DNA from: Chloroflexota bacterium
GTDB taxonomy: Bacteria; Chloroflexota; UBA11872
DNA: 64,000 bases
Reading direction: 5' to 3'
Assembly: GCA_963667925.1 (NCBI GenBank)
Contig: OY764080.1
Coordinates: 85,990-149,989, forward strand
The notes under the pieces were generated by a model, which was not told the DNA's origin, made no database searches, and worked only from the letters and a program-made list of their open reading frames with translations. Shown in pieces: positions 17,158 to 36,894 of this stretch; the stretch's first letter is position 1, and every line of letters begins with the position of its first letter. The position numbers and the translations under genes are program-made.

Positions 17158-20100
17158 ATGATGCGTATTCGTCAGCCGATGCATGCTCGGCGGCGCGGCT
17201 GGCTCAAGGCTCTGGGGCCTCTGATTGCAGCGGCGACTCTTGTGCTGGTTGCGGCGGTGCAGCCCGTGGCGCAGGCCCAGGGACCGACACCCGGCCCGGC
17301 GCTGCTGCCAACAGTTGCTGCTGAACCGCCGAAGCCGGACCAGCGGTTCGCGATGGTGAGCAGCGGCAACTTCCATACCTGCGCGCTGCGCGCCAATGGC
17401 CAAGTCTTGTGTTGGGGTGCCGGGCCGCCAGGCGAGACGGCCGCATTCGGCTCGGTCGACCTCGGCCAGGCGTCGCCGCCGGACGGGGAACGATTCGTGG
17501 CCATCAGTAGTGGCGGCTTTCACACCTGCGGCCTGCGGGACGAAGGAACCGTCGCGTGCTGGGGCGCCGGCCGCGATGACTGGTCGGAGAGCCTGGGCCA
17601 GGTTGGATTCGGCCAGACCTCCCCTCCGGTTGGCGAGGTCTTCACCGCCATCAGCGGCGGCGCTGGGCATACGTGCGGGCTGCGCGAGGACGGCTCGGTG
17701 GCCTGCTGGGGGAACGACGAGTTCGGCCAGGCCACGCCGCCGGACGGCGAGACATTTAAATTCATCACCAGCGGCGCCAGTCACTCCTGCGGCCTTCGAG
17801 AAGACGGCTTGGTCGTGTGCTGGGGACCGGAGCCGCGTCCGGGTCCGTTTGGCGGCTGGGAAGCCCCACCGGAAGCAGAGTTCGCGTCGATCGACGCGGC
17901 ACGCGGGTATACGTGCGGCGTGCCGCTGGAGGGCCCGCCGTTCTGTTGGGGGAGCTACTCGGAGACTCCCAACCTCGCGCGGTATCCGCCAGCGGATCTG
18001 TGGCTCATCGCTGTCAGCGGGGGCGGGGGGCACGCCTGCGGTCTGCAGAAGGACGGAACGGCGGTGTGCTGGGGCGATCTGGCGGACGGGCCACCGCCAG
18101 GGCAGCGGTTCGCGTCGCTCAGTAGCGGCGTCGGGCATACCTGCGGGCTGCGCGCCGACGACGGCACGGTGGCCTGCTGGGGCGACGACACATATGGACA
18201 GGCGTCGCCGCCCGCTGGTGCGCGATACCTCGGGTCCGAGCCCAGCCCACCCGATCCCTCCGACCCGGGGGCGCCGCTGACCGCGCTCAGCAGCGGCGCT
18301 GATCATCTCTGCGGCATCACGAGCGAAGGCTTCGCCTGGTGCGTTGGCGGTGACTCATTCGGTCAGTCATCGCCGCCGCCTGGGATGAAATTCGCGTCCA
18401 TCAGTGCCGGCTGGTTTCACACCTGCGGCATTCGCCTGGATGGCGTGGCGGTCTGCTGGGGCGACGACGAGGACGGTGAATCTTCGCCACCGCCTGGGGA
18501 GCGGTTCGTGGAGATCAGCAGCGGCACAGGCCGCACCTGCGCGCTGCGCGAGGACGGAACGCCGGTCTGCTGGGGCGGCGAGAGCGCTGAAGAGACGGCG
18601 GCCGTGGAGGACGAGCAATTCACCACCATCAGTGTCGGCTGGTCCCACGCTTGCTCGTTGCGGGCCGACGGCACGGCTGTTTGCTGGGGTACCGACTGGG
18701 ATGGCCGGGCCACGCCGCCGGAGGGTGAGAAGTTCAAGGCCATCAGCAGCAGCTGGCAGCACACCTGCGGGGTGCGCGAGGACGGGACCGCGGTGTGCTG
18801 GGGCCGCGACAGGGACGGGCAGGCCTCGCCGTCCGATTACGAGCGCCTTGTGGACATCAGCACGAACCTCTATCACACCTGCGCGCTTCGAGAAGACGGC
18901 ACGCCTGTGTGTTGGGGCGCCGCTCGCCCTGGGGCGGATTACGGTCAGGCTTCACCGCTCCCCGGCGACGAGTTCGTGGACTTGAGTAGCGGAGTCGAGT
19001 TCACCTGCGGCCTGCGCGCGGATGGTACGTACAGGTGCTGGCGCTTCGGCCCCACGAAGCTCGGGTTCGACCTCGAGACCGTCGGCCGCGACGGATTCAG
19101 AGCGGTGCGGGACCGCGCGCTGACCGAAATCAGCAGCGGCAAGCGGCACACCTGTGCGATCGATGTGGACGGCGCGCTGCTGTGTTGGGGTCTGAACGAC
19201 TACGGCCAGGCCTCCCCGCCGGAGGACGGAACCTTTATTGCGGTCAGCAGCGGGGAACGACACGCCTGCGCCCTGCGCGACAACGGCGAAGCGATCTGTT
19301 GGGGCGACGCGGCGGACGGCCGGACCGAGCCGCCGGCCGACGAGCGATTCGTGGCGATCAGCAGCGGCTGGGCCTATACCTGTGCGCTGCGCGAGGACGG
19401 TGCAGCCGCGTGTTGGGGTCAGGATCATGATGGACAGGCATCACCGCCCGCGGATGAGCGCTTTAGTGCGATCAGCAGCGGGCCAACGCACGCCTGCGCG
19501 CTACGCCAGGACGGCTCGGCGGTGTGCTGGGGCCAGGATGACGACGGTCGGGCCTCGCCGCCGGCCGACGCACGATTCACCGCCATCAGCAGTGGCTGGG
19601 ATTACACCTGTGCTCTCCACCATGACGGCAGCCCCTTCTGCTGGGGCGATCCCGATAACGAGGCGGCGAGGCCGCCATTTGTCGACCGCTTCGTCTCGAT
19701 CAGCAGTGGTTCCGATCACGCGTGCGGACTACGCGCCGACGGCACGCCGGTTTGCTGGGGCGAACGGAATGCGGTCGCTCCGCCGGGCAAGTACTTCAAG
19801 GCCATCAGCATTGGCCTGGGGCACACCTGCGGATTGAGCCAGGACGGTCGGCCGATCTGCTGGGGCAGCGGTTACTTAACTCAGACTGAGTCGGCCAAGC
19901 GCTCACAGTTCGAGACGGTCAGCGCTCAGAGCTTTGTTTCCATCAGCAGCGGCTACGCGCACGTCTGCGCGCTGCGTGAGGACGGGTCGGCGGTCTGCTG
20001 GGGCTCGAGCGGAGCTGGACAGACCGCGGCGCCGCATGGCGAGACGTTTTCTTGGCTGTCCAGCGGCGGCTCTCACACGTGCGGGTTACGGTCGAATGGA

Positions 20101-23100
20101 GAGGCGGTCTGCTGGGGCTACAACGAGCAGGGTCAGGCGTCGCCGCCCGACGGCGAGCGGTTCATGGCGCTCACCAGCGGTAGCTATCACACGTGCGGGC
20201 TTCGTAGCGACGGCACCGCAATTTGCTGGGGGAGGGACGACAGCGGTGAGGCGTCGCCGCCCGAGGGCGTGCAGTTCATGGCGCTGAGCTCCGGCGAGCG
20301 CCACACCTGCGGCTTGCGCACCGATGGCCTGGCGCAGTGCTGGGGGGACGACGAGCACGGCAAGTCGACGCCAACCCAGGCCGAGAGATTCGTTGCCGTG
20401 ACCAGCGGCGAGGAGCACACCTGCGCGCTGCGCGCCGATGGCACGCCGGTTTGCTGGGGCGTGGCCGGAATCGTGACGTCACCGCCGCACGGCGTGGCAT
20501 TTGCCGCGCTGAGCAGCGGCAGACAGCACACGTGTGGATTGCTGGCGGACGGGACGCCGGTCTGCTGGGGCTCAAACGCCGGCGGTCATGAAACCCCTGG
20601 CGGGCGAGCCTTGGCGCCGCACGGCGAGAAACTCAGCGCGGTGAGCAGCGGCGGCGACTTTACGTGCGGCCTCCGCACGAACGGCACGCCGGTTTGCTGG
20701 GGCGGGCGCTTCGAGTCCGGCGCGCCGCGCTATCCGCCTATCGCCGGCGGCCCATTCGTTGCCGTCAGTAGCGGGGAACTGCATACCTGCGCGCTGCGTG
20801 AGGACGGCACGCCGCTTTGCTGGGGCGACGACTCCCACGGTCAGGCGTCGCCGCCAGCGGACGAGCGCTTTGTGGCCGTGAGCAGCGGTGAGCAACACAC
20901 CTGCGCGCTGCGCGAGGACGGTCGTGCGGAGTGTTGGGGATCTAATCGCAACGGGCGGTCAACGCCGCCGGAGGGTGAACGATTCGAGTACCTCAGCAGC
21001 GGCTCAAACCATAGTTGCGCGTTGAGGTCGGATGGATCCGCAGCGTGCTGGGGGCGCAACGACCAGGGGCAGGCCTCGCCGCCAGAAGCCGAAACGTTTG
21101 TAGCGATCGGCAGCGGCGGCGAGCATACCTGCGGCCTACGCGATGACGGGTCCACCTTCTGCTGGGGCTCTGAAGACCGATCCAGCAGCCGGGACAAGCC
21201 CTGGCCGCCGGAGGACGAGCGCTTTGTCGCCCTGAGTGTTGGACCGAACCATACCTGTGCGCTGCGAGCGGATGGCACGTTCTGGTGCAGCACGGACTTC
21301 GGTCAATGGTCCGGGGTGTTCGAGGGCGAGCGGTTCGTTTCCATCAGCAGCGCCCGCGAGCGCCTGTGTGGCCTTCGGGACGACGGTTCGGTCGCCTGCT
21401 TTGGCGACTTTCGAATCTACCTTCCGGTCGATCAGCCGTTCGTGTCGCTTAGCACTGGGGCCCGGCACACCTGTGGGCTGCGCGAGGACGGCGCCATCCT
21501 GTGCTGGGGTCAGAACAGCCGAGGCCAGGCTTCGCTTCAGGAACGGCAGCGAACGTCCTGGCGTGGCGAGCGGCTCACGGCCGTGAGCGCCGGCGGCCGC
21601 GTCGCCTGCGCGCTTCGCCAGGACGGGACGCCGGTGTGCTGGGTAGCGCCCGATTCCAGGTGGTCGTCACCACGCGACATTCCGGAGCCTCCAGACGAGC
21701 GGCTGAATACAGTCAGCGCCGGGTCCGGGTACGTCTGCGGTCTTCGCGACGACGGCACCCCTGTTTGCTGGGGACAGGACTGGAACGGTCGAGCCGTGCC
21801 GCCGGACGGCGAGGTGTTCAAGACCATTAGCAGTGGCTCCGGGCACACCTGCGCGTTGCGTCCGGACGGCACGCCCGTGTGCTGGGGGAGCAACGATGAT
21901 GGATACGGTCGGCAGGCCGGTCGGGCGTCGCCGCCGGAGGGCGAGCGCTTCACGACCATCAGCGTGGGCGCCTTCCACACCTGCGCGCTGCGCGAGGACG
22001 GAACCCCCGTGTGCTGGGGTAGCAACGAGGACGGGAACGGCAACCCGGTTGGTCAGGCTTCACCGCCCGGTGGCGAGCGGTTCACGGCCCTCAGCAGTGG
22101 ATCGCTCCACACCTGTGCCTTGCGCGGGGACGGGACGGCCGTCTGCTGGGGTGAGAACCACGACGGCCGGTCGTCGCCGCCGGAGAACGAGTCGTTCGTC
22201 GCGATCGACAGCGGCGCCGAACACACCTGTGGTGTCCGCGCCGACGGCTCCGCCGTCTGTTGGGGACAGAACTGGAACGGCCAGGCCTCGGCACCCGTGG
22301 GCGAGGACATTGCAGCTATCGGCAGTGGCCAGGATTTCAGTTGCGCCCTGCGCCAGGATGGAACCGCGACGTGCTGGGGCGAGGGGTACCCCCGCCCGCC
22401 TGATGTGACACCCCCGTACACACCGCTGGCGCCGCCGCTGCCCAGCCCGCTGCCAGAGTTCGTGGCCGTCAGTTGCGGCAGCTTCCACACTTGTGCGCTC
22501 AGCGTGGACGGTCAGGCGATTTGCTGGGGCAGCCGGTCCGGTCTTCGGCCGGTGTGGCCGCCGGAGGGTGAGCGGTTTGTCGCGCTCACCAGCGGGTGGA
22601 GCCACACGTGCGGGCTACGCGACGACGGAATGGCCGTGTGCTGGGGTGTTGGCGTCGCGGTCAACGAGTCGCCGCCTGCTGGGGAAACATTCGCCGCGCT
22701 GAGCAGCGGCTCGAGCCACACGTGCGGCCTGCGCGAAGACGGGACCGCTGTGTGTTGGGGCTTCGACGACGACGGTCGAACCTCGCCGCCGACCAGCGAG
22801 CGCTTCACGATGCTCAACAGTGGTGGCGGTCACACCTGCGGCCTGCGCGAAGACGGGACCGCCGTCTGCTGGGGACGAGACGACGAAGGCCAGGCCTCGC
22901 CGCCCGCCGACGAGCGGTTTACGGCACTTGGCAGCGGCGGCAATCATACGTGCGGGCTGCGTGCCGATGGGACTGTCCTCTGCTGGGGCGATAAGTCAGC
23001 CCCTCACGCGACACCGCCGATCGGCGAGACCTTTGTAGCCATCAGCAGCGACGCCTACCGGACCTGTGGGCTGCGTAGCGATGGGACTGTGGTGTGTTGG

Positions 23101-23253
23101 GGATCCGTTCGAGCCGGCGAATCCACATCACCCGACGACGTGCGGGTCACCACCATCAGCATGGGTAACGCACACACCTGTGGACTGCGCGCGGACGGAA
23201 CCGTCGCTTGCTGGGGGTCCGATGACGAGGGCCAGGTGTGGCCGCCGCGATGA
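17158..23253 (+). CDS. Secreted giant RCC1/BLIP-II repeat protein (49 repeats, predicted seven 7-bladed propellers)
   Basis: Signal peptide (...VQPVAQA), then 49 copies of FxAxSxGxxHTCxLRxDGxxxCWG counted by eye. Confidence 0.9.
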   Translation: MMRIRQPMHARRRGWLKALGPLIAAATLVLVAAVQPVAQAQGPTPGPALLPTVAAEPPKPDQRFAMVSSGNFHTCALRANGQVLCWGAGPPGETAAFGSVDLGQASPPDGERFVAISSGGFHTCGLRDEGTVACWGAGRDDWSESLGQVGFGQTSPPVGEVFTAISGGAGHTCGLREDGSVACWGNDEFGQATPPDGETFKFITSGASHSCGLREDGLVVCWGPEPRPGPFGGWEAPPEAEFASIDAARGYTCGVPLEGPPFCWGSYSETPNLARYPPADLWLIAVSGGGGHACGLQKDGTAVCWGDLADGPPPGQRFASLSSGVGHTCGLRADDGTVACWGDDTYGQASPPAGARYLGSEPSPPDPSDPGAPLTALSSGADHLCGITSEGFAWCVGGDSFGQSSPPPGMKFASISAGWFHTCGIRLDGVAVCWGDDEDGESSPPPGERFVEISSGTGRTCALREDGTPVCWGGESAEETAAVEDEQFTTISVGWSHACSLRADGTAVCWGTDWDGRATPPEGEKFKAISSSWQHTCGVREDGTAVCWGRDRDGQASPSDYERLVDISTNLYHTCALREDGTPVCWGAARPGADYGQASPLPGDEFVDLSSGVEFTCGLRADGTYRCWRFGPTKLGFDLETVGRDGFRAVRDRALTEISSGKRHTCAIDVDGALLCWGLNDYGQASPPEDGTFIAVSSGERHACALRDNGEAICWGDAADGRTEPPADERFVAISSGWAYTCALREDGAAACWGQDHDGQASPPADERFSAISSGPTHACALRQDGSAVCWGQDDDGRASPPADARFTAISSGWDYTCALHHDGSPFCWGDPDNEAARPPFVDRFVSISSGSDHACGLRADGTPVCWGERNAVAPPGKYFKAISIGLGHTCGLSQDGRPICWGSGYLTQTESAKRSQFETVSAQSFVSISSGYAHVCALREDGSAVCWGSSGAGQTAAPHGETFSWLSSGGSHTCGLRSNGEAVCWGYNEQGQASPPDGERFMALTSGSYHTCGLRSDGTAICWGRDDSGEASPPEGVQFMALSSGERHTCGLRTDGLAQCWGDDEHGKSTPTQAERFVAVTSGEEHTCALRADGTPVCWGVAGIVTSPPHGVAFAALSSGRQHTCGLLADGTPVCWGSNAGGHETPGGRALAPHGEKLSAVSSGGDFTCGLRTNGTPVCWGGRFESGAPRYPPIAGGPFVAVSSGELHTCALREDGTPLCWGDDSHGQASPPADERFVAVSSGEQHTCALREDGRAECWGSNRNGRSTPPEGERFEYLSSGSNHSCALRSDGSAACWGRNDQGQASPPEAETFVAIGSGGEHTCGLRDDGSTFCWGSEDRSSSRDKPWPPEDERFVALSVGPNHTCALRADGTFWCSTDFGQWSGVFEGERFVSISSARERLCGLRDDGSVACFGDFRIYLPVDQPFVSLSTGARHTCGLREDGAILCWGQNSRGQASLQERQRTSWRGERLTAVSAGGRVACALRQDGTPVCWVAPDSRWSSPRDIPEPPDERLNTVSAGSGYVCGLRDDGTPVCWGQDWNGRAVPPDGEVFKTISSGSGHTCALRPDGTPVCWGSNDDGYGRQAGRASPPEGERFTTISVGAFHTCALREDGTPVCWGSNEDGNGNPVGQASPPGGERFTALSSGSLHTCALRGDGTAVCWGENHDGRSSPPENESFVAIDSGAEHTCGVRADGSAVCWGQNWNGQASAPVGEDIAAIGSGQDFSCALRQDGTATCWGEGYPRPPDVTPPYTPLAPPLPSPLPEFVAVSCGSFHTCALSVDGQAICWGSRSGLRPVWPPEGERFVALTSGWSHTCGLRDDGMAVCWGVGVAVNESPPAGETFAALSSGSSHTCGLREDGTAVCWGFDDDGRTSPPTSERFTMLNSGGGHTCGLREDGTAVCWGRDDEGQASPPADERFTALGSGGNHTCGLRADGTVLCWGDKSAPHATPPIGETFVAISSDAYRTCGLRSDGTVVCWGSVRAGESTSPDDVRVTTISMGNAHTCGLRADGTVACWGSDDEGQVWPPR

Positions 23254-26200
23254 GGCTGGGGAACGTGCTAATGGCCGGCCCTAAAGTCAGCCGCGCTGTC
23301 GCTCATCGGGCGGGCCGGCGACTCTTGTCGTCATGTTCAGCTCCAGCGATGCGGCTGATGCCAGGCCTTCGTCGATCAAGAGGCAGATCGAGGCCAGTGC
23401 CCGGACAGCTGCGGCCTCTCACCGCAAGACGTGGGTCCCGAGGTCTGGCGCCGCCACTGCGTTTCGTCGCGCTGGCCGCGGTGCTGATTGCACTCGGTGT
23501 GGGCCTTACGACCACGCCGGCGCATGCCCACAGCCGCATTCCGCCGTGCGAGAGTTTCGGTCTCCGCGGCTTACACGTGATGAATTCCCAGAACTCCGTG
23601 CAATGGAAGCCGGGTGGCTCCGAACTGCTCTTCATCCACCACGACCAGCTCTACCAGGCGACGGTGGACGGGACACGCGTGCACGGCACGTTTGCGGTGC
23701 CGTACGAGGCCCACATCGAGTCGCGGTCGTATCTCAAGGTCTACCTGACCCACGCCGACGTCTCCCCTGACGGGACCCGGGTGGCGTACTCCGTCTGCTG
23801 GGACTCCTTTACGTTCTGGGACAGTCCGCCAAGGGAACCGCCGGATGAAGAGTCCCGCGCGGTCGACGTTCCGATCGGCACAGTTTTCTTTGAAGTCGCC
23901 GTCTGGGATGCGACCACCGACGAGGTGGATTACCTGGCCGTTGGCAGTGTGCCGGTGTGGTCGCCCGACGGTAGCCGCATTGCGTTCTTGTCCGATTACA
24001 ACTACGCCAACCCGCCGGACGGCCGACGGACACGCGTCGAGGCCGACCCGGGGCTCTTCAGCATGGCCGCGGACGGCTCCGACATCCAACGCCTGGCGCC
24101 GGCGGACCCTGGGGACGTCGGCCTTCCGCCCCGCTGGTCGCCGGACGGGCAGCACCTGGCCTTTGTGCGAGGCGTGGGTTTGGCGGAGCAGGCGGTGTAC
24201 ACGGTGGGCGCCGACGGATCCGATCCCAGGCAGATCTCCGCCGCGGCCAGTCTTCCCTCCTGGTCGCCGGACGGCGCGCGGCTGGCGCTGGCGTTGCCCG
24301 ACGGCGAAGAAGTGGCGCTGTACACCATTGCGGCGGACGGCTCGGACCCGCGGCGGCTGACGACGATCGAGGGCTGGCAGAGCCAGGGGTGGAACGAAGA
24401 GTCGTACACGGAAGATCCGTCGGTTGCCTGGATCGAGACGGTGGCCTGGTCGCCGGACGGATCGAAGATCCTCTACACGTGCGGATGGGGGTCGGTCTGC
24501 GTGGTCGACTTGGACGGAAATCCCGTCGGATCATCGCCTGAGAACTTCGGGGAGCCACACGGACCGGCCTGGTCGCCTGACGGGTCGCGAATCGCGATTG
24601 GTCTAGGCGCTGAATTGGACCGCTATTCGCGGCGCGTTCCCGAGGTTCTCTACACGATGCGGCCCGATGGCTCCGACCCGCAGGTCGTTGTGACGCTGGG
24701 CGTCGGGCTGGTGGCCGAGAGCGTCAGAGAGGCCGACCTTGCAACGCGATACGCGGCCTGCACCGCCGGATACGTAGTCCCCGAGCCCGGCGCGAGTCCC
24801 GGCCTGGTGAGCGACTGCCAGACGCTGACGAATCTGCGTGATTGGCTCTTCGGTGGCGTGACCACGAACTGGAATGCCGGGACGCCGATCGACCAGTGGG
24901 TGGGACTGACCATCGAGGGCTCGCCGCGGCGGGTGACGGGGCTGAGGGTGGGAACCGGCAGATACGGCGATGCCGTAACGGCAGGCGTTATCCCGCCTGA
25001 ACTCGCGGACCTGCCCAAGCTGCGGAGGCTCGAGCTTGCCGGCAACCAGATTTCGGGCAACATTCCGCCGGTGCTCGGTCGACTCGCCGAGTTGGAGACG
25101 CTGGACGTCGCCCACAATCAACTCTCGGGGTTGATTCCAGCCGAGCTTGGCAATCTGAGCTCGCTGCGGAGCTTGAACCTGTCGGGTAACCGGCTCTACG
25201 GGGAGATTCCACCGGAACTGGGCCAGCTGACGAGCCTTGAACTCCTGGATCTTGCCGGGAACGATCTGACCGGCGAGATTCCAGCGGAGCTGGGCAACCT
25301 CGGCAGTCTGCAGCGGCTTCTCCTTCGGGAAAACGAGTTCGGCGGGGGAATTCCGAGCGAAATCGGCCAACTTGTTGGCCTGGTGGTGCTGGACCTCGCC
25401 GAGAGCGGTGTCGCGGGCAGCATTCCGCCTGAAATCGGCGGTCTGGCCGGGCTCGAGACGCTGGACCTCTCCAACAATGAGCTGACGGGTGACATTCCGC
25501 CCGAACTCGGCGGGCTGCGAAACCTGAAGGGGTTGAATCTCAGCCAAAACCACCTGACGGGCGGCATCCCCTGGGAACTGGGCTGGCTGACGAAGCTCAC
25601 GGACCTGCAGTTCGGGGGCAACCAACTCACCGGGCGAGTCCCGGTGGCCGTGGGGTCGATGTACGACTTGTGGTCGCTGGGACTGTGGGGCAATCAACTC
25701 GAAGAGTGCCTCCCCTTCCACCTGAACAGACGTGAGCCGCCGTACGTCAGCCCGCGCGAATGGGCGACCTGCGAGGCCGGTTCGTATGCCTTCAACATTC
25801 GCGACGACGCGTCGCCCGGGGCCAGCGTGGGCCGGGTCTACATCCCCGGCCGGCTGGCGGACACGGTCGGATATGTGATCGCGGCCGGTAACGAGGCCGG
25901 GGCGTTCGCCATCGACTCGGGCAGCGGCCACATTACCGTTGCCGGTGAACTGGACGCTTCAGCGGTCGATGCCTATGTGCTGACGGTCGTGGCGAGTGAT
26001 GGACTCGGCGACCCGGTACGCGTGGCGATCCGGGTCAATCCAGCGCCGTCGCCGCCGACCTGCGCCAGCGGAATCGCCGTGCCGAATCCGCAGGAGAATC
26101 CCGGGCTGGTGAACGACTGCCGGATCCTGCTCGAAGCGCGGGAAGTTCTGGTCGGGCGGTCCTGGCTGAATTGGAGCGCCGAGGCACCGATGGAGCAGTG

Positions 26201-26645
26201 GGAAGCGATCGAACTTGGTGGCACACCGCGACGCGTCCTGGCGCTGGAGATTCAAGGGCCCCACGGCGGCCGGCGCATCCCGCCCGAGCTTGGAGGCCTG
26301 AGCGCTCTGCGGCGACTGGTGCTCTTTAACAACCGACTGTGGGGCACCATACCGAGCGAACTAGGCCAACTGAGCGAGTTGCGCGAACTCGATCTGTCGA
26401 ACAACGCCTTCTCGGAAGCGATACCGCCGGAACTGGGTCAGCTCGACAACCTGACGAGACTTAACCTCTCGGTTAATCGACTGGCAGGGTCAGTCCCAGT
26501 GGAACTCGCACAATTGACTAGCCTGCGCGAACTGCAGCTCGACTCGAACTACTACTTGGCACAGTGCCTGCCGCCCGGACTGGCCGTGCGAGCGCGGGAC
26601 GGTGTCGCGTTGCCCGACTGGCCGACGTGCGAGGCGGACAGCTAG
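23250..26645 (+). CDS. Exported multidomain protein: TolB-like (PD40) propeller, LRR, cadherin-like domain, second LRR
   Basis: Signal ending 'PAHA', repeated 'WSPDG', 10+4 copies of the 24-aa GxIPxELGxLxxLxxLxLxxNxL repeat, and cadherin-like 'YVIAAGNEAGAFAIDSGSGHITV'. The ATG at 23250 overlaps the upstream stop; the true start could be later. Confidence 0.88.
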   Translation: MRLGNVLMAGPKVSRAVAHRAGRRLLSSCSAPAMRLMPGLRRSRGRSRPVPGQLRPLTARRGSRGLAPPLRFVALAAVLIALGVGLTTTPAHAHSRIPPCESFGLRGLHVMNSQNSVQWKPGGSELLFIHHDQLYQATVDGTRVHGTFAVPYEAHIESRSYLKVYLTHADVSPDGTRVAYSVCWDSFTFWDSPPREPPDEESRAVDVPIGTVFFEVAVWDATTDEVDYLAVGSVPVWSPDGSRIAFLSDYNYANPPDGRRTRVEADPGLFSMAADGSDIQRLAPADPGDVGLPPRWSPDGQHLAFVRGVGLAEQAVYTVGADGSDPRQISAAASLPSWSPDGARLALALPDGEEVALYTIAADGSDPRRLTTIEGWQSQGWNEESYTEDPSVAWIETVAWSPDGSKILYTCGWGSVCVVDLDGNPVGSSPENFGEPHGPAWSPDGSRIAIGLGAELDRYSRRVPEVLYTMRPDGSDPQVVVTLGVGLVAESVREADLATRYAACTAGYVVPEPGASPGLVSDCQTLTNLRDWLFGGVTTNWNAGTPIDQWVGLTIEGSPRRVTGLRVGTGRYGDAVTAGVIPPELADLPKLRRLELAGNQISGNIPPVLGRLAELETLDVAHNQLSGLIPAELGNLSSLRSLNLSGNRLYGEIPPELGQLTSLELLDLAGNDLTGEIPAELGNLGSLQRLLLRENEFGGGIPSEIGQLVGLVVLDLAESGVAGSIPPEIGGLAGLETLDLSNNELTGDIPPELGGLRNLKGLNLSQNHLTGGIPWELGWLTKLTDLQFGGNQLTGRVPVAVGSMYDLWSLGLWGNQLEECLPFHLNRREPPYVSPREWATCEAGSYAFNIRDDASPGASVGRVYIPGRLADTVGYVIAAGNEAGAFAIDSGSGHITVAGELDASAVDAYVLTVVASDGLGDPVRVAIRVNPAPSPPTCASGIAVPNPQENPGLVNDCRILLEAREVLVGRSWLNWSAEAPMEQWEAIELGGTPRRVLALEIQGPHGGRRIPPELGGLSALRRLVLFNNRLWGTIPSELGQLSELRELDLSNNAFSEAIPPELGQLDNLTRLNLSVNRLAGSVPVELAQLTSLRELQLDSNYYLAQCLPPGLAVRARDGVALPDWPTCEADS

Positions 26646-29120: not shown

Positions 29121-29936
29121 TTAGCCGATGTTCGATCCGGCGGGCAGCAGGTGAGCCAACCGCAGCCTCAGGTTGTCCGGCGCCTCGTCGTAAACCTCGC
29201 GGGGCAGGTCTTCCACGAACGAGTCGATCCCGTCACCGACAATCACCTGGCGCTCTACGTGGCCGCGTCGCGTCGGGTTGAGGTTCAACCACCACGGCGC
29301 GAAGCGGACGACCACGGTCACGCGATCCTGCTCGGTCGTGTTGGGTGAGACCGCGTGCCAGAGGCGGCTGTCCACGATGGCAACCGAGCCGGCCTTGCCC
29401 AGCAGGCGGGCTTCGTCGTCGCGTGGCGCCATCCAGTCGCCGAGTGGGCTGCCGGGGCGTGGGTGATCCTGCTGGCGGTGGCTGCCCGGCACCACGTACG
29501 TCGCGCCATTCTCGGGCGTGAAGTCGGTCAGCATCCAGAACGTCGTCAGGTGCATCGGCACGTCCGGGTAAGGAGCGGGGATATGGGCCAGGTTGCGCTG
29601 GTTGTAGGGAAAGTCCGCGTGCCAGATGTCACGGTCGGTTCCGGGGCCCGTGACGTAGCCGGTCACATAGGAGATGCGCCAATGGGGTCCTAGGACGCCC
29701 TGGGTGACGGTATTCACGTCCTCGTCGCCGAGGTGGGGCAGCAGCGCCTGGTCGAAGCGCAGCAGGTTGGACACGCCGTAGCGCGGGGCGGGGGAGCGTG
29801 AGTTTTCGATGATGGATGCCGACACCTTCTCGCGAACTTCGCTGAGGGCCGGCTCCGAGATGATGTCGGGGATTACGCACCAGCCGCGTGTACGCAGGTC
29901 GTCCACGTGGGCTTCAAGGCCGTTGCTTGCGTTCAT
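29121..29936 (-). CDS. Phytanoyl-CoA dioxygenase (PhyH) family Fe(II)/2-oxoglutarate enzyme
   Basis: 'WHAD' (HxD), 'LTDFTPENGATYVVPGSH' and distal 'LWHA..N....R'. Confidence 0.92.
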   Translation of the reverse strand: MNASNGLEAHVDDLRTRGWCVIPDIISEPALSEVREKVSASIIENSRSPAPRYGVSNLLRFDQALLPHLGDEDVNTVTQGVLGPHWRISYVTGYVTGPGTDRDIWHADFPYNQRNLAHIPAPYPDVPMHLTTFWMLTDFTPENGATYVVPGSHRQQDHPRPGSPLGDWMAPRDDEARLLGKAGSVAIVDSRLWHAVSPNTTEQDRVTVVVRFAPWWLNLNPTRRGHVERQVIVGDGIDSFVEDLPREVYDEAPDNLRLRLAHLLPAGSNIG

Positions 29937-30125
29937 TCTGATCTCCGCCGGCGGACGCGTCGGCCCGGCCGTTCGTGCGTTCGCCTGCTCCGGGCAGGCA
30001 ACGACTGCGATTTAGGGAATGCTAGCAACGCCAACGGGCGGCGGTGTCCACCGACTCGGCGGAGCGGGGCAACGCAGCGATGGGTGCCGCAGTGGCCCAG
30101 AGGTGCAATCTGGCCTAGCGTCTCG

Positions 30126-30317
30126 CTAGCAGCTGGTCCCCAGGTTGCCGCAGCGGGACCGTGGGTCCTTGACGGGGAAGGGGTCGTCGCGGGTACCCGC
30201 AGTCGAACCGTCGTCGCCGCAGGCCGGGCCAAGGCCGACGGCCATGACCGTGAATGCGCCGAGCAGGGCTCCGGCAAACCGTCGTCGGGTGAGCGGCCGC
30301 CTGGTCCGTCTGTCCAT
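30126..30317 (-). CDS. 63-aa predicted Tat-exported lipopeptide with C-terminal Cys pair (copy B)
   Basis: AGGAG RBS; 'LTRRRFAG', hydrophobic core, lipobox 'LGPA-C'; tail 'RCGNLGTSC'. Paralogue of 30409..30600. Confidence 0.8.
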   Translation of the reverse strand: MDRRTRRPLTRRRFAGALLGAFTVMAVGLGPACGDDGSTAGTRDDPFPVKDPRSRCGNLGTSC

Positions 30318-30348
30318 AGCGACGTCTCCTGACGGTTCGGCCGCGACC

Positions 30349-30377
30349 ACTAGAGCGGGTGCGGGAGGTGTCCGCAA
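30349..30377 (-). promoter_or_regulatory. Promoter-like element upstream of peptide B
   Basis: TTGCGG, 17 nt, TCTAGT; same position and spacing as the element upstream of peptide A. Confidence 0.5.
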
Positions 30378-30408
30378 GCTGGCCGATTGCCGGTGACCGA
30401 CGGTACCG

Positions 30409-30600
30409 CTATCCGCACGTCACGTTGCCGCAGCGGGCGTTTGGGTCCTTGTACGGGAACGGATCGTCGCGGGTTCCTGCGGTTCCGCCCGAATCACCGC
30501 CGCACGCCGGGCCGAGGCCGACGGCCACTACCGTCAACGCGCCAAGCAGCGCTCCGCCGAATCGGCGTCGGGTCAGGGACCGCCGGGGCCGTTTGTCCAT
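30409..30600 (-). CDS. 63-aa predicted Tat-exported lipopeptide with C-terminal Cys pair (copy A)
   Basis: 'LTRRRFGG', hydrophobic core, 'LGPA-C', 'TAGTRDDPFPYKDP' and tail 'RCGNVTCG'. Confidence 0.8.
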   Translation of the reverse strand: MDKRPRRSLTRRRFGGALLGALTVVAVGLGPACGGDSGGTAGTRDDPFPYKDPNARCGNVTCG

Positions 30601-30633
30601 TGCGCCATTCCCATGACTGTTCGGGCCGTGACC

Positions 30634-30662
30634 ATTAGAACGGCTGCGGTCGACTTAGGCAA
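30634..30662 (-). promoter_or_regulatory. Promoter-like element upstream of peptide A
   Basis: TTGCCT, 17 nt, TCTAAT; the downstream leader sequence is also conserved with copy B. Confidence 0.5.
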
Positions 30663-30728
30663 ACAGGCAGTCCCGGTGGATGCCCCAAAGCGAGCCCTTG
30701 CCTTGGCAAGCACCCACTCAGCCGCGAC

Positions 30729-31709
30729 TCACCACTGAAACACCGTGCCCATGAGCTGCGACGAATCGTCGCGCAGCCTGGCGTAGATCCCAGGAGCTTC
30801 CGCTGCTGGAACCACGTCCTGGATAAGCGGTTCGACCTGCACCAGGCCCCGGCCGACCAGCCGGCAGAGGTTCCGCAGATCGTCGCGGTCGAAGTGGCTG
30901 TTCTGCTTGATGGTGATCTCCTGGCCCTGGCCGGTCCTGAAGGTGTAATTCACCTCCCAGCGGCCCGCGACCAGAATCACGCGTCCCTGCAGGCGGACGG
31001 ACATGATCAGCCTGTCTTCCATCCCCGGCACGCCCGCAAAGTCAATGACCGCGTCAAAGGCGCCCTCGCCGATGTCCCGGTCCCAGCCATCGCCGGAAAC
31101 GTCCACGACCGCTTCAGCGGCGCCGATTGTTCGCGCAAGCTCCAGCCGCCGCCCGGCGACGTCGCCGATAGTCACGCCCGCGCCCATGACTGAAGCGATT
31201 TGCGCCGCCATCTGCCCGATGCACCCGGCCCCGCCGACAATCAGCAGACGCTCGCCCATACGCAGCTCGGCGTTGCGGCAGCTGCGCATCGCCACGCCGC
31301 CCATGCCGAATAGGGTGGCGTGGACCGGGTCGATGTCGTTGGGCAGCTTCAGAACCAGGTCGTCCTCGGCGATCGTGACAAACTCCGCGTGGCCGGCCGG
31401 GCTGCGTTGCGTTCCGCTGTGAGCGCCGATGAAGACCAGGTCGCCAAGGTTCAGATCCGAGACGTCGGGGCCCAGTGCAATCACCTCGCCGACGCTCTGG
31501 TAGCCCTCGTTCGATGGCAACTCGTGGTCGGGGCGCGAGTAGTTGCCGCCCAGCATGTTGTTGCGTTCGGTGCCGTTGGTGACCCCGCTGTAGATCGTGC
31601 GGGTCTTGACCTCGTTGGCTCGGAGCGGTTCCGTGTACTCAGGCCAGTCGTCGACCAACCGCTTGCCACGCCGTCCGTCGGCTTCCAGAACGGTTACAAG
31701 CGCGCGCAT
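30729..31709 (-). CDS. Zinc-binding (MDR) alcohol/sugar dehydrogenase family protein
   Basis: 'YSGVTNGTE', 'GYQSVGEVIALG' and Rossmann 'IVGGAGCIGQ'. GGAGG RBS precedes the ATG at 31709. Confidence 0.85.
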   Translation of the reverse strand: MRALVTVLEADGRRGKRLVDDWPEYTEPLRANEVKTRTIYSGVTNGTERNNMLGGNYSRPDHELPSNEGYQSVGEVIALGPDVSDLNLGDLVFIGAHSGTQRSPAGHAEFVTIAEDDLVLKLPNDIDPVHATLFGMGGVAMRSCRNAELRMGERLLIVGGAGCIGQMAAQIASVMGAGVTIGDVAGRRLELARTIGAAEAVVDVSGDGWDRDIGEGAFDAVIDFAGVPGMEDRLIMSVRLQGRVILVAGRWEVNYTFRTGQGQEITIKQNSHFDRDDLRNLCRLVGRGLVQVEPLIQDVVPAAEAPGIYARLRDDSSQLMGTVFQW

Positions 31710-34729: not shown

Positions 34730-35356
34730 TCACGAGTTCGAGGCCAGATCGTCCACCACCAGCCGCGCGGCGTTCAGCGCCAGCGCGGTCAACGCGTCGT
34801 GCCGAACGGGCCAATCCGGCGGCAGCATGGCAAATGCGGCGTAGGTGCCCGGACTGACTGGTTGCACAACCAGCGCGTGTCCAAGCGCGACCGCCTGAAT
34901 CGAACGCCAGGCGGCGCCGTCAAGCCGGTAGACGCCGGCGGATCCGGCGCCTGGCTGGATGAACGTCAATCGAGCCGCGGGCGAGAGCGCAATGTCCCGC
35001 CCGCCGGCATCTCGCGCCGTGATCGTCATCGCCGGCGAGATGCGCACCAGGTTCGGCCCGGCGTTAGGTAGTGCCACATAGGTTGGTTGGGCCAACAGCG
35101 TGATATCGGCGCCACTCGCCAGTGTGCGGTCGTCCTCATCTAGCGTGGCGCTCGAGAGGCGCAGCGTGACTGTGGCCGAAGTCTGGCTCGGCCCTGGCGG
35201 CGGACCCGCGGCGGGCGAGGTCGATGCTGGTTCTCGCAGCCGCACATCTGGAGCCGTCTGTGCTTTGGCGAGCGGCGGAGATGACGGCAGGAGGGCCGCG
35301 ACCGCCAGCAGCACAATGAGTGCCGCGGCGGCGCCGACCGACAGCCAGCGGATCAT
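34730..35356 (-). CDS. Exported hypothetical protein with Pro/Ser/Thr-rich linker
   Basis: The ATG at 35356 overlaps the upstream stop; signal-like N-terminus; beta-rich domain. Confidence 0.6.
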   Translation of the reverse strand: MIRWLSVGAAAALIVLLAVAALLPSSPPLAKAQTAPDVRLREPASTSPAAGPPPGPSQTSATVTLRLSSATLDEDDRTLASGADITLLAQPTYVALPNAGPNLVRISPAMTITARDAGGRDIALSPAARLTFIQPGAGSAGVYRLDGAAWRSIQAVALGHALVVQPVSPGTYAAFAMLPPDWPVRHDALTALALNAARLVVDDLASNS

Positions 35357-36894
35357 GGCGTGCTCACGGGACGCAGAGTTGCGAGGACATCGGCTGAGCG
35401 GAGGCCTCTTGCCTCGATGTCCACGGCCCAAAGAGGCCGCTGTACTGGCCATTTGCCGGCGGCCAACGGACTCGTTGGTGATGCGTCCGTTGGTAGACCG
35501 GCCTGCCGGCCAAGCGATTCCCGGTACCAGTCGAACTGCCAGAGGCGGCGATCGAGGACCGTCACGTCGGTCCGTCCGCCGGGTGCGTAACGCGTATACC
35601 AGAGGGGAAATGTCGCGCGGTCGTCCTCGGTGACCAGCACACTGCCGGGCTCGGCCTGAGCAATAGCCGCGTGTGCGAACGCCTCGGCGTGCGTGGCGTC
35701 GCGCATGGAGACTTCAGGGGCAAGCTCGGTGCCGCGAATGACTGCCGTGGTGATCAGCAGTGTCGGGAGGATTGCGGCAACAAGACGACCGATGCCAGCC
35801 CCGGCCGCGGTAGTCAGTCGTGCGACCTCATCGACGCCCACCAGTGACCACACGGCAGCCACAGACAGCACTGGCAGGATGAGCACCTCGTCGTCGCGCG
35901 AGTTGTAGAGGGCGCCTACGGCCAGCGCGCTTACCGCCAGCCACGCCGTAGCGAGCGCGACAGGCCCATGTCGCCTGGTTAGGGCCGCGCCGCCAGCCGC
36001 CAGTAACGGCAGCAGGAACCACGTCAGTTGGCGTACGGGTTCGCCAAGCAGCCAGACCGCCTTTGACGCCGCTGACCCGATATCACTTGCGCCCAGGCGG
36101 GAGCGGTAGATCTCGCCGCTGACGACCGACCAGAACCGCTCGGGACTCGTTGGGTCGCCCCAGTTGATCGGCGGGTCAAGCGCCGCCGCGACTGGCAGAT
36201 AAACGAAGACCGCGCAGCCCGCGGCAATGCCAGCAGCCGCCATCGCCGCCGTCCGCCAGCACTGACGGGACCGCCGACGTCCCAGAAGCAGGATGGCCGC
36301 CAATGCTGGCCCACCCAGTAATACGGTGACGTGTGCGCCGATCCCGAGGCCAAGCAGGACTCCAGACGCAGCCGCCCACCTGGACCCGTAGTGACCGGCG
36401 CCGTCGCCAGCCCGCGCACGCAGCGCAGCGTAAACCGAACTCCAGAGCAGCAGGCTGGTGAGCGCGTAGACCTCTAAGACGATTGCGTTCGACCAGACCA
36501 GCGGGGCAAATCCGTAGACGGTCAATACGGCGGCTCCCGCTGCCGCTCTGGGCAAGGGCATCGGCACACCGGCCGTGGGACGAAGCCGCGCGGCCAGCAA
36601 TCCGAGCGGAATCAGCGATGCCGCCGCCGCGAGCGCGGTCAGGACATTCAGCCGTAGCGCCAGGTCGCCCAACGGGATTGCGCGCGCGGCTAGTCCAATC
36701 AGCATCAGCGTCGGGTAGCCGGTGGGATGCGGCACGCCGCCCACTGCCACCGCAGCCGCCAGATCGCCGCTGTCAATCCCCGCTCCAGACCACACTACCC
36801 CTGGCGCCAGGGTCAGCAGGTAGGCAGCCAGCACACCCGAGGACGCGCCGAGCCCGACGGCGGCGCCCACGTATCGGTCGGTAATACGCGGCAC
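35353..36894 (-). CDS. DUF2723 membrane glycosyltransferase (GT-C, TMEM260-like protein O-mannosyltransferase family)
   Basis: 'TLAPGV....DSGDL......GVPHPTGYP', 'WSNAIVLEVY', 'INWGDP' and 'DRATFPLWY'; many TM helices. Confidence 0.85.
   Translation of the reverse strand: MPRITDRYVGAAVGLGASSGVLAAYLLTLAPGVVWSGAGIDSGDLAAAVAVGGVPHPTGYPTLMLIGLAARAIPLGDLALRLNVLTALAAAASLIPLGLLAARLRPTAGVPMPLPRAAAGAAVLTVYGFAPLVWSNAIVLEVYALTSLLLWSSVYAALRARAGDGAGHYGSRWAAASGVLLGLGIGAHVTVLLGGPALAAILLLGRRRSRQCWRTAAMAAAGIAAGCAVFVYLPVAAALDPPINWGDPTSPERFWSVVSGEIYRSRLGASDIGSAASKAVWLLGEPVRQLTWFLLPLLAAGGAALTRRHGPVALATAWLAVSALAVGALYNSRDDEVLILPVLSVAAVWSLVGVDEVARLTTAAGAGIGRLVAAILPTLLITTAVIRGTELAPEVSMRDATHAEAFAHAAIAQAEPGSVLVTEDDRATFPLWYTRYAPGGRTDVTVLDRRLWQFDWYRESLGRQAGLPTDASPTSPLAAGKWPVQRPLWAVDIEARGLRSADVLATLRPVSTP

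Follow-up and report, generated by a model that had tools for sequence, protein, structure and literature searches.

What do two adjacent open reading frames (ORFs) of only 63 codons each encode, if they encode anything at all? The pair lies on the minus strand of the window analysed here, a stretch of 64,000 nucleotides (nt) from a Chloroflexota bacterium (contig OY764080.1 of assembly GCA_963667925.1, positions 85,990 to 149,989 of the forward strand), with gene A at 30409..30600 and gene B at 30126..30317, each given in the ORF list as 63 amino acids (aa) plus a stop codon. An earlier note on this DNA had presented these tandem paralogous ORFs as a new family of membrane-tethered lipopeptides, and their sequences were exactly as quoted there. 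The explanation that we favour, with a probability of about 0.6, is that each gene encodes a membrane-tethered, disordered lipopeptide which would display a conserved short motif together with a Cys-Cys loop.

Two small genes, their relatives and their promoters

The products of A and B align with 47/60 identities (78%; BLASTP, E=1e-24), and common to both are the T-R-R-R-F of the N-terminal region, the invariant Cys33 after Ala, the core GTRDDPFP.KDP and an RCGN word followed by a second Cys, with C-x4-C spacing in A and C-x6-C in B. Gene A has database and genome matches that are 98–100% identical to it. A word-seeded search of 5.8 billion proteins returned 25 relatives, 23 of them 59–64 aa long; of the two outliers, one is a read-through form of 93 aa from a contig of 608 bp, and the other, of 44 aa, starts late. 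Among the 25, two carry the NCBI name "hypothetical protein [Chloroflexi bacterium]". The very existence of these database proteins means that gene callers do find such genes, which weakens the earlier suggestion that standard callers could easily miss them.

In six-frame genome searches, strong matches (E<1e-20) were obtained in 19 of the 23 other species genomes of the same genus and in none of 16 sister-family genomes; the family of A and B, referred to below as the Cys-tail family, was not found in the four smaller genomes of the genus (2.0–2.7 Mb). When 98 genomes of the class were searched, all matches below 1e-7 fell inside the genus, the best one outside it (1.1e-5) covering the signal part only. 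Across 401 genomes of the phylum, which represent 217 genera, this genus alone gave matches at E<=1e-7, and 13 of the 15 sampled members matched in addition to the genome of the window. The family is confined to one Chloroflexota genus.

For comparison of the genes, 18 loci were fetched from 17 of the 19 matching genomes (G003 and G015, with short contigs, were left out, and G017 gave two loci), which with the window makes 19 loci in 18 genomes. Together they hold 42 genes of three types, distinguished by their tails: type A (20 genes) ends in ..PFPY-x-DP-x-x-R-CGNV-x-C(G), type B (13 genes) in ..PFPVKDPRSR-CGNLGTSC and type C (9 genes) in ..PFPYKDP-x-AH-CGNDGC. The arrays comprise one gene in 3 loci, two in 9 and three in 7.

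All 42 reading frames are open, and the homologous start position holds ATG, GTG or TTG in 41 of them. The remaining one, a type-B copy (L029 in G016), has AGG at this codon and an otherwise intact frame; it may have lost its start recently, or another start may be in use. Calculated by the Nei-Gojobori procedure, the ratio of nonsynonymous to synonymous substitution rates (dN/dS) was 0.24–0.26 for whole genes within types (0.24 for type A) and 0.23 for A against B of the window. For the mature part, values of 0.22, 0.045 and 0.11 were obtained for types A, B and C, lower in all three than for the signal part (0.28–0.54), and the variable sites of the 17 core codons numbered 5, 6 and 14 at codon positions 1, 2 and 3. 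A search of positions 29500-31200 against Rfam gave no match at E<=1. Both ORFs are real genes, and from these substitution patterns they are probably translated, with the constraint residing in the mature peptide. The earlier note had made its view depend on the existence of homologues and on purifying selection between the copies, and both turned out in its favour, with 42 genes at 19 loci and an A-to-B ratio below 1.

Each copy has its own promoter-like site, with the pattern TTGCnn-17nt-TCTA(A/G)T and the placement that the earlier note had described. Read from the minus strand, these sites are TTGCCT / 17 nt / TCTAAT for A (-35 at 30662-30657, -10 at 30639-30634) and TTGCGG / 17 nt / TCTAGT for B (-35 at 30377-30372, -10 at 30354-30349); a Shine-Dalgarno sequence AGGAG precedes B (30326..30330, minus strand) and a weaker Shine-Dalgarno-like GGGAA precedes A (30608-30612, minus strand). 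The motif stands before 41 of the 42 family genes, 31–34 nt ahead of the start codon and always with a 17-nt spacer, and the pattern was found just seven times across the whole 3.55-Mb genome, which places this promoter-like motif beyond chance. Within -4 to -18, a Shine-Dalgarno-like word is present in 37 of the 42. Generic scans of the locus for sigma-70 promoters and for terminators gave 0 and 0 sites, the former because the scan demands A at position 2 of the -10 hexamer. The DNA likeness of the two units runs from about 75 nt 5' of the start codon through the stop codon, so the whole transcription unit of about 285 bp (promoter, leader and coding sequence) was duplicated. As parts of the favoured explanation, A and B are probably separate, independently transcribed genes for tiny exported peptides, and the three Cys-tail subtypes probably arose by tandem duplication of such whole units.

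Signal, core motif and cysteines of the peptides

The signal comprises residues 1-32 (minus strand, 30505-30600 in A and 30222-30317 in B). Its n-region, M-D-K-R-P-R-R-S-L-T-R-R-R, which carries T10-R-R-R-F14 in both peptides, is followed by 19 uncharged residues with a Gly/Ala/Thr-rich h-region, and the signal ends in Ala-Cys, the Cys33 codon being located at 30502-30504 in A and 30219-30221 in B (both minus strand). In an alignment of 23 family sequences, the invariant residues of this part are R11-R13, A32 and C33. Given the N-terminal signal and the invariant Cys after it, the peptides are best read as membrane-tethered micro-lipoproteins, and the earlier proposal of a new family of this kind stands, as far as sequence can tell, on real, selected and unnamed genes. 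Genes for export and lipidation are present in the genome: TatC was matched with 206 bits, Lgt by two PF01790 matches and LspA by one PF01252 match over the cut-off. The peptides are likely, but not certain, to be lipidated at Cys33.

The consensus for twin-arginine translocation (Tat) is an S/T-R-R-x-F-L-K-type motif before a weakly hydrophobic h-region, and the T-R-R-x-F of the twins fits it. The earlier note regarded a Tat signal on such a tiny cargo as unusual, a view that is not borne out by the remainder of the genome: RR.[FLIVM] is present in the signals of 60 of its 99 large lipoprotein candidates ([ST]RR.[FLIV] in 30), so the Tat-like signal of the twins is the house style rather than something special, and no Tat profile matched the family (see below). 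A regular expression combining RR, h-region and lipobox found 90 ORFs against 11 in the reversed-genome control, 52 of the 90 exceeding 250 aa. One homologous paralogue type has the same core behind a signal without the twin arginine.

In the mature 31-aa peptide (minus strand, 30412-30504 in A and 30129-30221 in B), the residues A41, G42, R44, D45, D46, P47, F48, P49, D52, P53, C57, G58, N59 and C62 are invariant among the 23 sequences. The conserved core is G42-T-R-D-D-P-F-P-Y-K-D-P53 in A (30442..30477, minus strand) and, by the alignment, G41-T-R-D-D-P-F-P-V-K-D-P52 in B (30162..30197, minus strand). The Cys pair follows as C57-G-N-V-T-C62 in A (30415..30432, minus strand) and as C56-G-N-L-G-T-S-C63 in B (30129..30152, minus strand), the latter identical in 13/13 type-B genes.

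The same genome contains three further small ORFs with the plan of signal, Cys, acidic linker and G[ST]RD[DN]PFPY; in these Cys-less paralogues, which are placed in other gene contexts, 11–13 residues follow the motif and no Cys is found beyond position +1. Alignment of the mature parts of the twins and of the Cys-less paralogues by hhalign gave a probability of 98.5% and E=3.5e-15, against 41% and E=2.8e-4 for the reversed control, so the core motif is a shared, older element and the Cys tail a subfamily feature. In its relaxed form, G[ST][RKQ][DENS][DEN]P.P, the motif was found at 5 genomic sites, all in micro-ORFs and 11–15 residues from the end. A profile of twins and paralogues, searched against 1.84 billion representative proteins, gave 13 matches at E<=1e-3, of which 11 are micro-lipoprotein-like (53–108 aa as called); the other two are an unrelated repeat protein and a protein matched by its signal only. 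None of 624 longer candidates matched at E<=1, and the possibility, considered in the earlier note, that the homologues are N-terminal fragments of a longer lipoprotein found no footing.

AlphaFold2, run with the 23-sequence alignment, gave a predicted local distance difference test score of 55, with a helix at residues 11-28 only and the mature part as coil; the mature peptide is thus predicted to be disordered, without a fold of its own. As to the cysteines, the twins have one at position +1 plus two others and the Cys-less paralogues have the +1 Cys alone. Among the large lipoprotein candidates, the number of Cys beyond +1 is even in 40 and odd in 22 (37 have none), a bias which suggests that disulfides form outside the cell. 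The cysteines of the twins may accordingly be read as one lipidated Cys plus a small disulfide loop.

From these features we infer the following course of events. The precursor would carry its 32-residue RR-type signal, as do most lipoproteins of this genome, ending in the invariant Ala-Cys; once exported by Tat or Sec, it would be lipidated at Cys33 and cleaved ahead of this residue by Lgt and LspA, leaving a 31-residue peptide tethered at the outer face of the cytoplasmic membrane. This peptide would consist of a variable acidic Gly/Ser/Asp linker, the linear motif G-T/S-R-D-D-P-F-P-Y/V-x-D-P and a loop closed by C-G-N-x2-4-C, and would most likely serve as a tethered ligand or a small accessory subunit for an envelope protein. 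The core motif would be the part held in common with the Cys-less paralogues, and the Cys loop a subfamily-specific addition diversified by tandem duplication.

Several observations weigh against this picture. The canonical lipobox pattern is [LVI][ASTVI][GAS]C, and the lipobox of the twins, G-P-A|C, is atypical; among the 23 sequences position -3 is G or S and position -2 mostly P, and other family members have G-A-A, G-S-A, S-A-A, W-P-A or S-G-A. In the 99 large lipoprotein candidates L-A-A occurs 46 times and G-P-A is not among the 12 commonest listed; the homologous Cys-less paralogues have the canonical L-A-A, L-S-A and V-T-A. With such a lipobox, cleavage by signal peptidase I, or no lipidation, is possible. 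No Tat hidden Markov model (we take the Tat signal profiles to be Pfam PF10518 TAT_signal and TIGR01409) matched any of the 23 members in Pfam at E<=10 or appeared among the NCBIfam matches at E<=1, with the caveat that HMMER filters may hide weak matches; the sub-threshold NCBIfam matches were confined to the signal regions of lipoprotein models. DsbA, DsbB, VKOR and Thioredoxin_4 had no match in this 95%-complete, single-contig genome, so the enzyme that would close the loop was not identified and the thiols could bind metal instead. No family-level functional hint came from the databases searched: even with the threshold relaxed to E<=10, none of the 23 members matched a Pfam family, no NCBIfam model reached its cut-off, the PDB profile search yielded only a two-domain laccase, matched in a signal-like way and without significance (E=2.1), and the best score in the ESM Atlas, 0.90, belonged to an unnamed cluster with recognition below the mark and gave no lead. 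Moreover, all genomes with the family are close kin, so that the 42 genes are not independent observations and their counts do not stand for independent events.

Two further observations concern the core motif. The Ser/Thr directly ahead of it is invariant in the peptides, and a homologue of the TMEM260-like protein O-mannosyltransferases is encoded at window positions 35353-36894 (minus strand), about 5 kb from the peptide genes. The idea that DPF/NPF in the core mimics eukaryotic endocytic motifs was rejected, since distant members have DPY/NPY and the peptide would not reach a host cytosol.

Metal binding, peptide modification and the neighbouring genes

The alternative that survives best, although it is unlikely, is a metal-binding or redox lipopeptide, the reduced Cys pair of which would bind a metal such as Cu or Zn, alone or between two peptides, and the RR signal of which would mean Tat export of the loaded peptide. 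Such a role is consistent with the invariance of C57 and C62, with the missing Dsb and VKOR matches, with the fit of T-R-R-x-F to the Tat consensus and with RCG-x(2-6)-C tails in three other micro-lipoprotein ORFs of the genome. In type C, His and Asp adjoin the cysteines (H-C-G-N-D-G-C) in 9/9 genes and would help, so that a metal site is most plausible there. However, a site of only two thiols is weak, His is lacking in types A and B, and the Cys-less paralogues keep the same core, the function of which evidently does not need cysteines. The even-Cys bias of the large lipoprotein candidates points to extracellular disulfides, RR signals are the house style, and none of the neighbours is a gene for metal resistance or metal transport. 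A complex prediction for two mature A peptides with Zn scored 0.03, which is no evidence either way.

A bolder form of this alternative, more doubtful again, would make the Cys-tail peptides lipid-anchored, thiol-based, metal- or redox-active ribosomal peptides produced without any MNIO (an oxidative enzyme that relies on multinuclear non-heme iron), either unmodified or modified by an enzyme class new to modified peptides of the lipoprotein pathway (for example, the adjacent PhyH-type dioxygenase), and exported by Tat since their loading or oxidation would take place in the cytoplasm, the organism being without a Dsb or VKOR match. If this were true, they would be among the smallest natural Tat cargos and would represent a new route to membrane-bound functional peptides.

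The neighbours bear on the question of modification. All on the minus strand, the gene order is UPF0261, PEP-hydrolase-like, ThuA, Zn-dependent alcohol dehydrogenase (ADH), A and B, PhyH-type dioxygenase (29121-29936), an unknown 226-aa protein, EEP phosphatase/nuclease and a short-chain dehydrogenase/reductase. The order ADH-peptides-PhyH recurs in 17/18 loci, but the neighbours are 85–98% identical, so this synteny reflects shared ancestry and not repeated association. The copy in G002 (L041, 6694-7084), the most divergent one and the only one outside the ADH-PhyH locus, is solitary, lacks the family promoter motif and is located 129 nt downstream of tRNA-Thr(TGT), facing a NUDIX gene; the PhyH orthologue of that genome (74% identity) is about 1 Mb away from the peptide gene. 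In G019, PhyH (70% identity) is present and the peptide is absent. PhyH also has its own upstream region of about 110 nt (29937-30050 in the window, minus strand), which is strongly conserved throughout the genomes compared, irrespective of the peptide type in front of it. Taken together, the solitary copy, the PhyH gene without a peptide and this upstream region speak for independence of the peptides from the genes around them.

The upstream stretch of PhyH contains an inverted repeat, GCCTGC-CCGGA-GCAGGC. Further upstream, the segment CTGCGGCACCCATCGCTGC aligns with the Cys-tail codons of a type-A gene and may, on this resemblance, be the relic of a lost peptide copy.

A second alternative is that A and B are precursors of peptides made by the ribosome and modified after translation (RiPPs) which use the lipoprotein pathway, with a cytoplasmic enzyme that would act, ahead of export, on the core or on the Cys pair; within this scheme the candidate would be the adjacent PhyH-type Fe(II)/2-oxoglutarate dioxygenase, acting, for example, by Asp or Pro hydroxylation. 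RiPP precursors with signal peptidase II signals are known as DAG-RiPPs, and the uncharacterised MNIO-associated "Cluster X" combines such a signal with a conserved CxxxxC (PMC13056109). The likeness, drawn from the published description, extends to a short precursor, a lipoprotein-type signal, an invariant +1 Cys and, in types A and C, C-x4-C near the C-terminus. The DAG-RiPP class is the closest published parallel, the architecture being alike and the defining enzyme missing here: those peptides are defined by an adjacent MNIO, and here no PF05114 match exists in the whole genome and no maturase adjoins the peptide genes. The same result leaves the bufferin-type precursor suggested in the earlier note without support; the conserved Cys motif in a signal-bearing precursor (C-x4-C in A and C, C-x6-C in B) is a resemblance only to bufferins, oxazolins and DAG-RiPPs. 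The RiPP explanation gains from the PhyH gene that follows the array in 17/18 loci and from the Asp/Pro-rich, nearly invariant core, and loses by the absence of any radical-SAM, YcaO or lanthipeptide-type match among the scanned neighbours, by the close kinship of the 17 syntenic loci, which makes the PhyH adjacency no independent evidence, by the solitary peptide of G002 and the peptide-less PhyH of G019, by the separate upstream region of PhyH and by the other gene contexts of the Cys-less paralogues. We consider it improbable.

Highly improbable is a Tat hitch-hiking carrier, a peptide which would bind a signal-less folded protein in the cytoplasm and take it across the membrane. The RR-type signal on a very small cargo and neighbouring enzymes without signal peptides (their N-termini read by eye) would suit such a carrier, but disorder is predicted for the mature part, the signal of one paralogue type that shares the core has no twin arginine, no partner gene is conserved, the G002 copy being solitary, and RR signals are generic in this genome. 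The unusual Tat cargo, the bufferin-like RiPP and the Tat carrier are without support in the sequence data.

Equally remote is the view that the ORFs are not functional peptides at all, having arisen as frames by chance in GC-rich DNA or serving, as leader ORFs or RNA elements, to regulate the downstream PhyH operon: antisense ORFs of similar length do overlap both genes, no terminator-like site separates B from PhyH, and the GC content at third codon positions of A (0.78) is little above that of the antisense frames (0.68–0.74), but the low dN/dS, smallest in the mature part, the excess of variable sites at the third position of this very frame, the conserved open frames and starts, the empty Rfam search and the G002 copy without a downstream PhyH speak against it.

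Elsewhere in the window, a 2031-aa protein of RCC1 repeats (27 stretches) is encoded at 17158-23253 (plus strand) and is followed at 23238-26645 (plus strand) by a protein of 1135 aa that contains LRR, PD40 and cadherin domains.

Known small lipoproteins and what the family adds

The membrane-tethered lipopeptide preferred here can be set beside several known systems. Entericidins A and B of Enterobacteria are very small lipoproteins encoded by adjacent paralogous genes and form a toxin/antidote pair of amphipathic helices. The twins resemble them in gene arrangement and size; unlike the helical entericidins, their mature part is Pro/Asp-rich and predicted to be coil, and no Pfam family, entericidin included, matched the 23 members. 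Another parallel is LptM (YifL), which is a lipoprotein of small size and without order and binds to the LptD/E translocon (PMC10567701), since a fold-less small lipoprotein acting as a tethered binding element for an envelope machine is the mode proposed here. Unlike the twins, LptM belongs to the lipopolysaccharide machinery of Enterobacteria, and its NCBIfam model gave no match to the two peptides of the window at E<=1.

In Leptotrichia, the PEP3458 microproteins form tandem arrays of up to 44 ORFs of 48–81 aa with lipoprotein signals; the mean identity of the members is 50%, their predicted structure is conserved, and macrophage activity is reported for them in a preprint (PMC13640731). 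By description, the present family is similar in its tandem lipoprotein-signal microproteins, lineage-specific expansion of copy number and diversification, so that the kind as such is already known from these arrays. It differs from PEP3458 in having only 1–3 copies, strong conservation (mature dN/dS 0.05–0.22) and no predicted fold.

About 25–30 other short ORFs of the genome, chosen by eye, also have a signal-Cys-acidic start, with a mature part of 19–61 aa; examples lie at G000:C1:2652281-2653399 (L081), 3030210-3032005 (L083), 326453-326930 (L082) and 2517909-2521930 (L084). Among them are five genes in a tandem array (CGGDF[DE][YF]K.SGDR...QEQYQAK) and a cluster of three genes (LTRDDYSFPGAEKD). 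They had no Pfam or NCBIfam family match, the LptM model giving sub-threshold matches to signal ends (up to 20.8 bits against a cut-off of 27.7), and one of these families is likewise confined to "hypothetical proteins" of Chloroflexi metagenome-assembled genomes. Since the general lipobox expression is noisy for short ORFs (255 matches against 189 in the reversed-genome control), this hand-picked list is a lead and not a result. A single wider "arom-x-F-P" superfamily was rejected, because hhalign of the twins with the LTRDDYSFPG family gave 0.3%, below the reversed control. What remains is an enrichment at the level of the motif: aromatic-x-aromatic was present in 20 of the 35 small candidates that passed a filter and in 6 of the 139 large ones, the filter having been chosen after seeing the data. 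Of 22 micro-lipoprotein genes, 9 lie within 5 kb of a solute-binding lipoprotein gene, where 19% would be expected (p=0.015), but this proximity was based on a post hoc threshold and was not used; the twins are 31 kb away from such a gene.

As a class, small lipoproteins and microprotein arrays are known but have been little understood, and to them this family adds a clean, well-conserved example. What is new is a genus-restricted, unannotated peptide family with a 31-residue mature part, an invariant linear motif, a Cys loop and three subtypes. Its interest would rise if the peptides proved to be Tat-dependent, metal-binding or enzymatically modified, and the lineage, with its 25–30 or so other candidate micro-lipoprotein ORFs, may be a useful place to study such peptides.

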